Source: a virus (Duplodnaviria > Heunggongvirae > Uroviricota > Caudoviricetes). From it: a stretch of 5,226 nucleotides of DNA. Positions within the stretch are counted from its first letter, which is position 1, and each line of letters opens with the position of its first letter. Shown piece after piece: positions 772 through 5,226 of this stretch. Made by a program: the position numbers and the translations under genes. Under the pieces are notes generated by a model, which was given only the letters and a program-made list of their open reading frames with translations, made no database searches and was not told the origin of the DNA. The stretch lies in IMG/VR virus record IMGVR_UViG_2529292907_000022. One strand, given 5' to 3'.

Positions 772-1953
772 ACGGTAAATCAGGCTTCTGGCGCATTACA
801 GAAAAAACAGAACGGCGCAGATATTCCAGGAAAAGATACCTTCATCAAAAATATTGGGGCCTGCCGCGCATATAGCGCATGGCTGAATATTGGTGGCGAT
901 AGTCAGGTCTGGACAACCGCGCAATTTATTTCGTGGCTGGAGAGTCAGGGAGCATTTAACCATCCTTACTGGATGTGCAAAGGCTCATGGACTTATGCAA
1001 ATAATAAGGTCATTACAGATACAGGTTGCGGAAATATTTGTCTTGCAGGTGCTGTGGTGGAAGTTATTGGCACTCGCGGCGCAATGACCATACGCGTTAC
1101 CACGCCGAGCACGTCCAGCGGTGGCGGAATTACTAACGCTCAATTCACTTATATTAATCATGGTGATGCTTATGCTCCTGGCTGGCGACGAGACTACAAC
1201 ACGAAAAATCAACAACCTGCATTTGCTTTAGGGCAAACAGGAAGCACTGTCGGAAATGATAAAGCTGTTGGCTGGAACTGGAATAGCGGGGTCTATAACG
1301 CAAACATTGGTGGCGCATCGACATTAATCCTCCACTTCAATATGAATACGGGGAGCTGCCCTGCTGTACAGTTCCGCGTGAATTACAGGAACGGCGGTAT
1401 TTTTTATCGTTCAGCCCGTGATGGTTATGGTTTTGAAGCCGACTGGTCCGAATTTTACACCACCACCAGAAAACCTTCAGCAGGAGATGTTGGTGCACTG
1501 CCGTTATCTGGTGGTCAACTGAATGGTGCACTGGGTATCGGAACATCCAGTGCTCTTGGCGGTAATTCGATTGTATTGGGTGATAATGACACGGGCTTTA
1601 AACAAAATGGCGATGGTAATCTGGACGTTTATGCTAATAACGTCCATGTTATGCGCTTTGTTTCCGGCGGCATTCAAAGTAATAAAACCATAAATATTAC
1701 AGGGCGTGTTAACCCCTCGGATTACGGTAACTTTGATTCCCGTTATGTGAAAGATGTTCGACTTGGTTCACAGCAATATTATGGAGTGAACAACTGGCAA
1801 ACATGGAATTTCCAGTGCCCTTCAGGTCATGTATTGTCTGGTATTAATGTTCAGGATACAGGGTCTAACTCTGCCGATAATATAGCGGGCGTTTATTACA
1901 GACCCGTTCAAAAGTATATAAATGGCACCTGGTATAATGTAGCGAGCGTTTAA
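754..1953 (+). CDS. Silent alternative tail-fibre C-terminal (receptor-binding) cassette, Sv'-like; promoterless, starts inside the crossover site
   Basis: Frame 1 is open from 754 to TAA at 1951-1953 with no start codon until 973: [79 protein letters not shown]... It shares a near-identical core ([48 protein letters not shown]) and the C-terminal motif INGTWYN with the expressed fibre tip. Inversion at the central dinucleotides would fuse it in frame to the constant part: ...AAVIEYLGL + QETVNQ... Confidence 0.8.
1360..1436 (+). repeat. Internal inverted repeat, copy A (77 bp, perfect) within the silent Sv' cassette
   Basis: cctgctgtacagttccgcgtgaattacaggaacggcggtattttttatcgttcagcccgtgatggttatggttttga is the exact reverse complement of 3327-3403. 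Flanking sequence stays similar with mostly synonymous differences. Confidence 0.8.
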
Positions 1954-1954
1954 T

Positions 1955-2483
1955 ATGATGCACTTAAAGAACATAAAAGCGGGTAATGCTAAAACACTGG
2001 AACAGTATGAGTTAACAAAGAAACACGGAGTTATCTGGCTTTACTCTGAGGACGGAAAAAACTGGTATGAGGAAGTGAAAAACTTTCAGCCAGACACCAT
2101 AAAGATTGTTTACGATGAAAATAATATTATTGTCGCCATCACCAGAGATGCCTCCACGCTTAATCCCGAAGGTTTTTAGCGTCGTCGAGGTTCCCGATAT
2201 AACGGCCAATCGTCGGACCGATGATTCCGGTAAGTGGATGTTTAAGGATGGAGCTGTGGTTAAACGGATTTATACGGCAGACGAACAGCAACAACAGGCC
2301 GAATCACAAAAGGCCGCATTGCTTTCCGAAGCTGAATCAGTCATCCAGCCGCTGGAACGCGCTGTCAGGTTGAATATGGCAACAGACGAGGAACGCACAC
2401 GACTGGAAGCATGGGAACGCTACAGTGTTCTGGTCAGCCGTGTGGATACGGCAAATCCTGAATGGACACAAAAGCCTGAATAA
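1955..2483 (+). pseudogene. Tail fibre assembly chaperone Tfa' (Mu U'-like), split by a +1 frameshift at a T5 run
   Basis: ATG at 1955 overlaps the Sv' stop (taATATGATG). The N-terminal frame [74 protein letters not shown] stops at TAG 2177-2179. The protein continues in the +1 frame as [32 protein letters not shown]...PEWTQKPE to TAA 2481-2483, colinear with the minus-strand paralogue ([18 protein letters not shown]). The break is at ttttt 2173-2177; T4 would restore the frame. Confidence 0.7.
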
Positions 2484-2488
2484 AAATT

Positions 2489-2508
2489 AAGGCCCGCTAT
2501 CGGGCCTT
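2489..2508. terminator. Hairpin at the centre of the invertible segment between the convergent tfa genes; likely intrinsic terminator, best on the minus strand
   Basis: aaggcccg-ctat-cgggcctt: perfect 8-bp stem, 4-nt loop. It lies 5 nt after the tfa' stop (2481-2483) and 3 nt after the tfa stop (2512-2514). On the minus strand the stem is followed by aattttta; the plus-strand tail (gtctcatt) is weaker. Confidence 0.5.
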
Positions 2509-2511
2509 GTC

Positions 2512-3044
2512 TCATTCAGGTTGTTCGGGAAATGTTACTGGCAGGCTGGAGGTGTCTGTAGATTCGACTTTCTGCGCATAGAGCATCCACCCGGTTAATT
2601 TTTGTTTATTCTCGTCGGAAATGATGCCCAGCCGTAGCTGTGAGTCCCATAGCTGGGTTTTATCCCTGACAAGTTGCAACAGGCTTTGCTTTTCATTCTC
2701 TGCCTGCTGCCTCTGTTCCTCCTCGGTATAAGTTCGCTTTATCACTGCGCCATCTTTGAACATCCATTTACCCGAAATATCAGCACGGCGATTTGCTGTA
2801 ATATCAGGTAATTCAACGACGCTTGCGCCTTCCGGATTAATTGCTGAAACATCCTTTTCAATACAAATAATAACGCCGTTATGGTCATAGGCCATTTTCA
2901 ATGTGTCTGGCCGGAAATTCTTTTGTTCCTCATACCAGTTTTTCCATCATCTGAATAAAGCCATTTGATGTTAAATTGCTTTGTTAGCTGGTATTGCTCT
3001 TTTGTTTTAGGATTGCCAGCAGTAATGTTTTTTAAGTGCATCAT
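2512..3044 (-). pseudogene. Tail fibre assembly chaperone Tfa (Mu U-like) for the expressed fibre, split by a -1 frameshift at an A5 run
   Basis: Minus-strand ATG at 3044-3042, 2 nt after the fibre stop. The N-terminal frame [35 protein letters not shown] runs into junk and a TGA at 2898-2900. The rest, (W)[50 protein letters not shown]...FPEQPE, is in another frame (ORF 2512-2901). The break is at ggaaaaactgg (plus-strand ttttt 2939-2943); the intact paralogue at 2053-2063 has ggaaaaaactgg (A6). Confidence 0.7.
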
Positions 3045-3046
3045 GA

Positions 3047-5226
3047 TTAAATACTCCCCGCGTTATACCACGTCCCATTAATGCAATACTGAATTGGCCT
3101 TGCCTGAGTTGTATCAATTAATTCATCACGGTTTCCGTTAACTGAACCCGTAACGACATAACCTGACCTGTCAGACCAGCCGGGACCATTCCATGTCCGA
3201 ACAGATGACAGACCGCCAAGGCGAATACCTGTAATAAACCTTGAGTTACATTCTGCCTGCGTGTATGCACCAACATCTCCCGCAGAGGGTTTGCGGGTCG
3301 TGGTGTAAAACTCTGACCAGTCAGCCTCAAAACCATAACCATCACGGGCTGAACGATAAAAAATACCGCCGTTCCTGTAATTCACGCGGAACTGTACAGC
3401 AGGACAACTTCCTTCTCCCATATAAAAATGAATAATTAACGTTGATGCACCACTAATAGTTGCGTTATAAGCTCCGCTACTCCAGTTCCATCCAACTGCT
3501 TTATCATTCGCAACGGTGCTTCCTGTTTTCCCTAAGGCAAACGCACCAACATGACTTGCTTTTAATGTGATATCGGAGGAACCATCAAAAGCCACATTGC
3601 TTATTTTCCTGGCAGTTTTTAATTTTGCAGCTGTAGAAGCATTGCCGGATAGTTCACCAGAAAGGCCACTGCTGAATGTTTGTCGATTAGTCCAGGTATT
3701 CGCTGTACTGAGTAACGGTATTTTCTCCCCTCTTGTGCCGAGTTCTCGTAAACCGAGGTATTCGATAACGGCAGCAACGGTCGATTTCGCAAGAATATCC
3801 CGCCCGACTTTTGTCAGGGTTGCCAGGCTGGCGACATCATTCCCCGTAAAATACGGAAACTTGCCTGCCGCAGTAGTAAGTCCGGCCAGCGCCGTCAGGG
3901 TGGCATCTTTCGGTTGCTTACCCGCAAGCGCGTTAGTCATGGTGGTCGCAAAATTCGGGTCGTTGCCCAGCGCCGCAGCCAACTCGTTCAGCGTATTCAG
4001 TGCATCAGGTGACGAATCTACAAGGGCGGCAATCGCAGCCATAACGAAAGCCGTGCTTGCGATTTGGGTATTATTCGTTCCCTGTCGCGCAGTTGGCGTT
4101 GTTGGCGTTCCGGTCAGTGCAGGACTATTTAAGGGCGCTTTCTTGTTCGTTTCACCCATTACCGCCTTAACCGCTTTTGGCGTTGCCGCCAGTGACTCGG
4201 AAGTGCTGTTGGTCGCACTGCTGAGCTGTACTATCACCTTTTTCGTCGTGCTCGCATCCTCCAGCGCCACGGCGGATGCAATATCCTCTGCCCGTTTTGC
4301 TGCTGTCTCGGCGCGCGTTGCCGCGGATTCAGCAGCAACTTTGCTCTGAGATGCAGCCGTCGCACTGCCTGCCGCCTCTGATGCTTTCGTTGTTGCTGTC
4401 GTGGCACTACCTTTCGCTGCTGACGCTTGTCTGGTCGCCTCATCTTTTGAAGCAGACGCAGATGATGCCGATGACGCCGCTGAACTGGCTGACGATGCGG
4501 CTGCCGCCTTAGAGGAAGCAGCATTGTCTGCTGAAGTCTTTGCATTTGTTTCAGAGGTTTTTGCTGCAGAAGCAGACCTCGCTGCTGCAGTGGCTTGCTC
4601 AGTGGCTTTGCCAGCCTTCGTGTGGCTGTCGAAGCGGATGATGCGGCGCTTTCTGCCGATTTTCCGGCGGCGGTGGCACTGGCTGAGGCCTGCCCCGGCA
4701 CTTGTTGACGCGGCACTGGCAGATAATGCAGCCGCTGTTTTGAACCTGCCGCAGCTGAGGCGCTCTGTCCCGCTGCTGTTTCAGAAGACTTAGCGTTCGT
4801 CTCGGACGTTTTTGCCGCCTTCGCGGAATTTCCTGCCGCCGTTGCCGAGGAAGCTGCACTACTGGCACTTGATGATGCATTCGTTTCTGAAGATTTCGCT
4901 GCCTCTTTTGAGGCCGCCGCACCCCGTGCCGAGGTGGCAGCTTCTGACGCCTTCGTGGTCGCTGTGGATGCAGAAGTGGCTGCCGATTTTTGTGATGCTG
5001 CGGCATTCGTTTCTGACGTTTTCGCGGCACTGGCGCTGGTAGCTGCCGCGCTTTTTGATGACTCTGCAGCAGCAGCACTTTTTGCTGCTTCACGGGTCTT
5101 TGTCGATGCCGTTCCTGCGCTGGAAGACGCTGACTGAGCCGACGACGCGGCCTGTCCGGCTGACGTGCTGGCTGCACGTGCTGAGCCTGCAGCATCAGTC
5201 GCATGAGTTGCCGCCTCGCTGGCTGA
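3047..5226 (-). CDS. Side tail fibre protein (lambdoid Stf-like shaft with Mu S-like invertible C-terminus); 5' end outside window; frame disrupted around 4620-4745
   Basis: Minus-strand ORF 3047-4270 ends ...[12 protein letters not shown] with stop at 3049-3047. Its frame stays open upstream and carries the Stf-like stretch [41 protein letters not shown]...[31 protein letters not shown]. From 5226 down to about 4742 a different frame carries the repeat shaft ([26 protein letters not shown] and similar). The right crossover site lies inside the coding sequence at ...[19 protein letters not shown]. Confidence 0.85.
3327..3403 (-). repeat. Internal inverted repeat, copy B (77 bp, perfect) within the expressed fibre tip
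   Basis: Reverse complement of 3327-3403 equals 1360-1436 exactly. Both copies encode the shared core ...[28 protein letters not shown]... Confidence 0.8.
3743..3768. other. Right crossover site (26 bp), inverted relative to the left site, inside the fibre coding sequence
   Basis: ttctcgtaaaccgaggtattcgataa compared with the reverse complement of the left site ttcctgtaaaccgaggttttagataa: 22/26 identical, 12-bp core gtaaaccgaggt identical. It sits at the constant/variable boundary of the fibre (VIEYLGL). Confidence 0.8.
4280..5226 (-). repeat. Ala/Ser/Thr-rich low-complexity repeat region of the fibre shaft (degenerate [12 protein letters not shown]-type repeats)
   Basis: Hand translation gives runs such as [99 protein letters not shown]-rich GCN-codon composition leaves long spurious open frames on both strands. 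Confidence 0.7.

Follow-up and report, generated by a model that had tools for sequence, protein, structure and literature searches.

A 77-bp inverted repeat in an invertible tail-fibre module of an Escherichia coli prophage, a probable footprint of homologous exchange between the two cassettes

Introduction

How do two alternative, opposed tail-fibre cassettes with different proximal modules and different tips come to share a perfect inverted repeat of 77 bp, and could this repeat serve as a second switch nested within the first? The question is raised by the final 5,226 bp of the 76-kb draft contig AIFW01000027.1 (GCA_000249615.2) of Escherichia coli DEC6B, deposited as viral record IMGVR_UViG_2529292907_000022 in IMG/VR and analysed here over its whole length, hereafter referred to as the window. 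The locus belongs to the invertible tail-fibre modules of the Mu G-segment type, is carried by a lambdoid prophage and comprises two crossover sites, two opposed cassettes each consisting of a fibre tip and a chaperone gene, and a truncated invertase gene. A previous sequence-only reading of the window had pointed out the repeat and had proposed that it reflects gene conversion and could support a further, homology-driven inversion. Our comparison with related loci indicates that the repeat is probably the footprint of a recent homologous exchange between two inverted copies of a conserved fibre-domain block.

Results

Exact alignment confirmed coordinates and length of the repeat. Positions 1360-1436 are the exact reverse complement of 3327-3403, and the 77-bp run is maximal with a mismatch at either side. 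It is nested in a larger inverted repeat, which spans 280 nt without gaps (1218-1497 and 3266-3545; 236/280 identical) and represents the two copies of the fibre-domain block. The approx. 150-bp stretch with mostly synonymous differences described by the sequence-only reading corresponds to the 147 nt from 1351 to 1497. Here, 49 codons encode the same residues in both cassettes and all 13 nucleotide differences are synonymous, 12 of them in third positions and one in the first position of an Arg codon (AGA/CGC). The accompanying statement that everything outside this stretch has diverged went too far, as the homology spans 280 rather than 150 nt and the 5′ parts of the two chaperone genes form further inverted repeats (69 and 59 nt, 75-77% identity). 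The interval separating the two copies of the repeat, previously given as ~1.9 kb, extends from 1437 to 3326 and measures 1890 bp. The probability of a 77-nt clean run is P ~2e-5 if 44 mismatches are strewn uniformly over 280 nt, and P ~4e-4 if the third positions of the 147-nt stretch receive the synonymous differences at random. Given the divergence of its flanks, the 77-bp run is non-random.

The cassettes and the repeats within them are arranged as follows (positions, strand, feature):

772-1217, +, proxA, proximal module of the silent cassette A, equivalent to the proximal part of Mu S′
1218-1497, +, conserved fibre-domain block, copy A, inverted repeat with a weak match to Pfam gp37_C
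1360-1436, +, 77-bp repeat, copy A, left 33 nt with the proxA-lineage haplotype and right 44 nt with the proxB-lineage haplotype
1498-1953, +, tipA, distal tip of cassette A, 100% identical to NCTC86 cassette 1
1955-2483, +, tfaA, Mu U-type chaperone gene (PF02413, Caudo_TAP), 99% identical to NCTC86
2512-3044, -, tfaB, Mu U′-type chaperone gene (PF02413), 92-99% identical to relatives
3047-3265, -, tipB, distal tip of cassette B, equivalent of the Mu S′ tip, 98-100% identical to Mu S′ and many prophages
3266-3545, -, conserved fibre-domain block, copy B, inverted repeat of copy A
3327-3403, -, 77-bp repeat, copy B; 3371-3398 has 11 of the 17 differences from the nearest orthologous cassette
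3546-3742, -, proxB, proximal module of cassette B, in frame with the constant fibre part, 99-100% identical to NCTC86 and L087

Each of the opposed cassettes consists of a variable fibre C-terminus and a Caudo_TAP chaperone, with the constant N-terminal fibre part lying outside, according to Pfam and to the collinearity with Mu S′/U′/U. The reading frame is uninterrupted through the right crossover site. Because the constant part reads leftwards in frame into cassette B, this is the expressed cassette.

To trace the two copies of the repeat, they were compared with 163 further block copies from IMG/VR prophages, E. coli chromosomes, Mu and related loci (designated by L numbers below where they have to be told apart). 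The nearest of these differs from the 77-mer by 2. The exact 77-mer had zero matches in IMG/VR and in the GTDB species representatives, a 67-mer of the repeat had zero matches in the JGI metagenome contigs, and the 77-mer was absent from 5,426 complete E. coli genomes, where the best match was 75/77. Over 1360-1392 (33 nt), close proxA-lineage blocks (n=55) show 0-2 differences and the other proxB-lineage blocks 10-11 (33/33 blocks), among them three amino-acid changes. Over 1393-1436 (44 nt), the relation is reversed: all but one of the 33 other proxB-lineage blocks have 0 differences and all proxA-lineage blocks at least 2, located at 1416 and 1431. Both copies in the window have 0 differences in 1360-1392 as well as in 1393-1436. 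The 77-mer is a chimera composed of a left 33 nt from the proxA lineage and a right 44 nt from the proxB lineage.

The same picture emerges from the cassettes as a whole. Over 1174-1415, cassette A does not differ from L007, which is of the proxA-tipB type, and over 1393-1625 it is identical to NCTC86 cassette 1, which is of the proxB-tipA type. It is thus a simple recombinant, joined inside the repeat at 1393-1415. In cassette B, 17/722 nt deviate from the closest proxB-tipB orthologue, L087, and 11 of these differences cluster in the 28 bp from 3371 to 3398, again inside the repeat. Here, copy B has 11 proxA-lineage bases that are missing from all 33 other proxB-lineage blocks. Two more differences at 3323/3326 beside the repeat match the proxA-tipB lineage, to which the right flank of cassette B (G1437, T1440) belongs as a reciprocal product would show. 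The tract ends abruptly, with a left boundary at 1359/1360-1365 and a right boundary at 1431-1437, and is followed by lineage-specific sequence. Across this tract, copy B holds the sequence of copy A. A private chimeric haplotype in both copies is the signature of intralocus gene conversion. The suggested recent conversion between the cassettes is therefore supported, as the 77-mer is private, occurs in both copies and overwrites the lineage haplotype of cassette B.

Relative to the common cassettes, the flanks of the repeat are in exactly the recombinant configuration. Mu-S′-type halves are split between the two arms, and each is joined at the repeat to the complementary proxB-tipA half. In the simplest history, this arrangement would have arisen from an ancestor with a Mu-S′-type cassette beside the invertase and a proxB-block-tipA-tfaA cassette beside the constant part. 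Pairing of the blocks mediated by RecA or a phage recombinase would have led to a crossover between them and, as a consequence, to inversion of the 1437-3326 interior with both tips and both chaperones, while a conversion tract of ~67-77 bp would have made the copies identical. Two-block segments with the interior in opposite orientation exist in nature (L100/L121). We consider the chances about even that such an intramolecular inversion of the 1.9-kb interior has already happened once. The more specific proposal that a nested inversion, driven by homology and independent of the invertase, exchanged tip-plus-chaperone units between the cassettes and left its scar in the locus is tentative, and we give it somewhat less than an even chance.

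Several points weigh against such a history. No ancestor combining the two parental cassettes in a single locus turned up in the 5,426 complete E. coli genomes. One reciprocal crossover alone gives no identical chimeric tract in both products, and it takes patchy mismatch repair, an additional short conversion or a parental variant not yet observed to arrive at one. The arrangement is documented by a single draft contig with homopolymer errors. Finally, all four proximal/tip combinations circulate in nature, and each cassette could hence be the outcome of its own exchange with other (pro)phages. The coverage of the window in complete E. coli genomes is nearly the same for both orientations of the interior (best coverage ~83% for the re-inverted window versus 82% as assembled), and neither arrangement is complete elsewhere.

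The distribution of block and cassette types bears on the last of these points. A single block copy is present in 162 of the 168 other surveyed loci. The commonest cassette in the sample is proxA-block-tipB-tfaB (Mu S′-U′). Full-length proxB-block-tipB occurs in 313 complete E. coli genomes, and proxB-block-tipA in NCTC86-type and related prophages. The combination realized in cassette A, proxA-block-tipA, was found in 0 of 5,426 complete E. coli genomes, and elsewhere in diverged forms only. An intermolecular patchwork, in which the cassettes were built separately via recombination or conversion with other (pro)phages carrying Mu-S′-type cassettes, would dispense with intramolecular inversion altogether; the conserved block would simply be the joint, and both cassettes would have been given the same donor tract. 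We regard this as unlikely, although it is the strongest competitor of an exchange within the locus. In Mu-like, P2-like, P1-like and lambdoid prophages alike, modules have been reassorted at the block, and all four combinations exist; joints of other cassettes also fall into the 49-codon stretch (e.g. 1440-1449 in L087), and E. coli genomes have a median of 3 related places. Moreover, phage recombinases of the Rad52 type exchange short stretches of diverged sequence with the fibre genes of prophages (PMC3945230). However, two separate patches representing complementary halves of one donor cassette would be required in the two arms of one locus, and no donor of the 77-mer was present in any collection searched. 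Even then, the chimeric left/right tract in both copies still demands intralocus conversion.

Two block copies are present in six surveyed loci besides the window, three of the NCTC86 type and three of the L100/L121/L122 type. The NCTC86-type blocks are 280/280 identical and belong to inverted arms of 781 bp with 99% identity, which begin at the crossover site, span the block and end within tipA (L001, 6432-7212 / 8649-9429; L091; L101). All 4 inter-strain single-nucleotide polymorphisms between the ends of these arms are common to both arms, a pattern indicating that the arms undergo concerted evolution. With regard to site-specific versus homologous inversion, the arm polymorphisms provide one informative marker, which is uninformative in the flipped strain. 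The blocks of the L100/L121/L122 type are 74% identical without any exact run >15 nt, and the interior of L100 and L121 has an orientation opposite to that in the window. In L122, an IMG/VR prophage, two block copies in direct orientation reside in one cassette (5013-6868; proxB-block-tipA(1-257)-block′-tipB-tfaB), which looks like a product of fusion or unequal exchange. In L100, a viral contig of 4.1 kb, the constant fibre part flanks the segment on either side (478-962 and 3737-4110) and an invertase is missing; the contig may be an assembly of mixed orientations.

Since the arrangement comes from a draft genome, the quality of the sequence has to be considered. The window contains five frameshifts, one in tfaA at 2173 (T5 in the window versus T4 in relatives), one in tfaB at 2944 (A5 versus A6) and three in the constant fibre part at 4620, 4693 and 4737. 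All of them are single-base length differences in homopolymer runs in comparison with close relatives and are probably sequencing errors of the pyrosequencing type, not real pseudogenisation. Such indels, together with the location of the window at the end of one draft contig, might raise the suspicion that the block copies were collapsed or mis-paired during assembly and that their identity and/or the proxA-tipA / proxB-tipB pairing is unphysical. The assembled and the re-inverted form are, in fact, the two resolutions of a repeat in an assembly graph, and the exact protein of cassette A is recorded in a single contig. Nevertheless, an artefact of this kind is improbable. The tract covers the most divergent parental stretch (11/28 nt), which an assembler would not merge, whereas the more similar stretch to the right (1437-1497) stayed distinct. 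Furthermore, the triple haplotype switch of cassette B is not the product of a misjoin, and 77 bp should be shorter than typical reads of pyrosequencing-type platforms.

Very improbable is an origin without any recombination, with strong constraint on the motif encoded there or on a signal embedded in the nucleic acid itself, for example a third crossover site, because relatives vary at at least 13 positions of the 77-mer including 3 amino-acid changes, which excludes constraint at the nucleotide level despite the 49 residues encoded alike in both cassettes and a 10/12 match of the core to one crossover half-site, TTCCTGTAATTC. A Min-like third crossover site in the repeat was also rejected by direct inspection, as the partner half-site scores 5/12 and the full-site pattern matches the outer pair only. 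An RNA element was not apparent either, the repeat having no match to an Rfam family.

The remaining features of the window are the following:

1-249, +, dinI-like gene, left neighbour of the prophage end (PF06183 DinI, E 1e-19; relatives annotated as DinI-like family protein)
365-469, -, tail-fibre assembly gene fragment adjoining the invertase truncation junction; homologue in JX2 and ZH142 annotated as partial tail fiber assembly protein
509-715, -, truncated Gin/Pin-type serine invertase gene (PF00239, N-terminal part only)
746-771, +, left crossover site of the pix/gix type, TTATCTAAAACCTCGGTTTACAGGAA, near-identical to Mu gix
2489-2508, strand not assigned, GC-rich hairpin terminator between the convergent chaperone genes, flanked by T and A runs
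3743-3768, -, right crossover site, TTATCGAATACCTCGGTTTACGAGAA on the minus strand, with the same central TC as the left site
3769-5226, -, constant N-terminal part of the side tail fibre, alanine-rich (PF03406), running off the end of window and contig

Both 26-bp crossover sites (746-771 and 3743-3768) are intact, lie in inverted orientation and have TC as their central dinucleotide. No other stretch of the window matches the full-site Din-family pattern, to which no match is expected by chance. The left site has 0 mismatches to this pattern and its half-sites score 12/12. An intact serine invertase gene next to the segment, as is characteristic of Din-family segments, is absent from the locus. 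The remnant comprises ~60 codons from a GTG at 691 and is 95% identical to the 5′ end of Mu gin over about 190-204 nt. Relative to Mu gin, a TGG to TGA exchange generates a stop at 509-511, just ahead of the point where homology to gin is lost (~position 500). The recombinational enhancer of this family with its Fis sites presumably sits in the retained 5′ part of the invertase gene. A Chi site, GCTGGTGG, is located at 460-467 on the minus strand at the truncation junction and is oriented to stimulate RecBCD recombination into the segment. A lone Chi site is statistically ordinary, as at least one was present in 26/200 shuffles.

The same invertase junction (300-745, 97-100% identical) is found in 19 other loci at several chromosomal sites (L001, L071, L078, L086, L088, L089, L091, L096, L101-L106, L113, L116, L117, L119 and L120). 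These sites include ompW; in the window the junction lies beside yecD-dinI. Both orientations were observed for each of four segment types in these 19 loci. This includes loci with a single block, in which the inner repeat therefore cannot account for flipping. The presence of both orientations among sister loci implies that invertases are supplied in trans. Gin/Pin-family invertases work in trans, and PinQ, PinR and PinE each invert the e14 segment (PMC12529663). The sequence-only reading had called the invertase dead. The gene is truncated indeed, but as an argument for a second switch this is weak in view of intact sites and 19 loci with the same junction in both orientations. Because both crossover sites are intact and sister loci occur in both orientations, the main switch at the DEC6B locus is probably still usable by invertases acting in trans.

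Comparison with known fibres and neighbouring prophages completes the picture of the locus. The proximal module proxA is 97% identical to Mu S′ and 97-99% identical to many prophages. Together with the block it matches PDB 8JU3, a Mu S/S′ fibre, from residue 175 onward, and block plus tipB match this structure up to residue 488. The C-terminus of tipA matches Mu S (PDB 5YVQ). The hairpin at 2489-2508 is likely to be a bidirectional terminator, as annotated in phage D108. Within the constant fibre part, the region 4350-5226 contains degenerate alanine/serine-rich repeats including six copies of a 33-nt unit, and the end of the contig inside them is probably an assembly break at a repeat. In 76 complete genomes, a lambdoid prophage at the yecD-dinI site has a different, non-invertible fibre module (e.g. 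L170, E. coli 20AR0300, 7009-11080), suggesting that the invertible module of DEC6B was swapped in as a unit.

Discussion

If homologous exchange between the blocks left the 77-bp repeat behind, the question arises whether the repeat can support inversion again. Short homologies recombine at low rates. The minimal efficient pairing segment is given as 31-34 bp for RecA and 23-27 bp for Red-beta in PMC3945230, and both values are exceeded by the 77 bp of identity present in inverted orientation on one molecule. For these two reasons, length above the pairing minima and inverted orientation on the same molecule, further invertase-independent inversion of the interior appears mechanistically possible at low frequency. 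Its products would be in frame with each tip moving along with its own chaperone, and the expressed tip would switch from tipB to tipA. The result would be the same as that of an ordinary flip but with the other proximal module. The second, nested switch put forward by the sequence-only reading is retained in so far as the repeat is a substrate for low-frequency homology-driven inversion. It is neither a programmed device nor a third invertase site. The expectation of chimeric receptor-binding domains was not supported, because tip and chaperone would travel as intact units and both products are existing cassette types: the predicted proxA-block-tipB corresponds to Mu S′ and the predicted proxB-block-tipA to the NCTC86 type. 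The repeat is a by-product of homology and recombination, not a dedicated second switch.

The exchange of fibre modules at conserved motifs has long been known. The DEC6B locus is a well-resolved new instance of it, no new kind of system, and does not overturn current understanding. Its value lies in a base-level example of how receptor-binding genes are reshuffled, in which the crossover is located to within 23 bp, the conversion tract measures ~70 bp and one locus has kept both reciprocal partners. Should the interior indeed have been inverted, fibre loci with two cassettes would be able to change the expressed tip through general recombination alone. Conserved blocks would then provide prophages without an invertase of their own with a second, recombinase-dependent route of host-range switching that runs beside flipping by invertases in trans. 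This would bear on the prediction of prophage and tailocin host ranges and on the reading of seemingly locked invertible loci. The locus also calls for caution in annotation. A truncated invertase does not equal a frozen switch, and homopolymer frameshifts in old drafts can mimic gene decay.

Among known systems, the locus falls into the Mu G / P1 C / e14 P class as a derivative with a truncated invertase. The G segment of Mu, also present in D108 and SfMu (gix sites, Sv-U / U′-S′v, gin), has the same architecture and belongs to the same sequence family. The left crossover site of the window differs from gix by one base, proxA, block and tipB together represent Mu S′ with 93-98% identity per module, and tfaA and tfaB correspond to U and U′, respectively. 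In contrast to the window with its two block copies, Mu has only one, in S′, and hence no inner repeat. The equivalent of its S′ cassette is split between two arms in DEC6B, where the constant part is a lambdoid side-tail-fibre N-terminus and the invertase is truncated.

The closest system is found in the NCTC86-type segments of lambdoid prophages at the ompW site, which have the same truncated invertase junction and share proxB, tipA, tfaA and the constant part with the window (99-100%). Like the window, they contain two inverted blocks evolving in concert. However, the homogenised arms extend over 781 bp there, whereas identity in the window is limited to 77 bp and the proximal modules are unlike (proxA versus proxB).

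The C segment of P1 (cix sites) is another invertible fibre segment with long inverted repeats, in which invertase-free recombination is possible in principle. Low-level cin-independent, Rec-dependent inversion was reportedly observed in the early P1 literature. The P1 repeat (636 bp, 98%) is situated upstream of the proximal module and excludes the block, of which P1 has one copy. The 0.6-kb repeats of P1 can thus be ruled out as the same feature on account of their position. Nested or overlapping inversions giving rise to more than two C-termini are known from Min of p15B, a three-repeat P2-like prophage of enteropathogenic E. coli E2348/69 and shufflons (PMC4272514). In those systems, the additional inversions proceed at extra invertase crossover sites. 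The inner repeat of the window is no such site, and any inversion there therefore depends on homology.

The mode of exchange, finally, resembles the mosaic evolution of tail fibres, in which conserved motifs are the sites of homologous exchange (Haggard-Ljungquist 1992; Sandmeier 1992, 1994; as cited in PMC3945230), and the relaxed recombination carried out by Rad52-like recombinases (PMC3945230). In both cases, as in DEC6B, a conserved coding block acts as the joint between proximal and distal modules, with tracts of ~100 bp. What sets the DEC6B locus apart is that both partners lie inverted in one locus and the exchange is intralocus, so that a crossover between them inverts DNA instead of swapping it between genomes.

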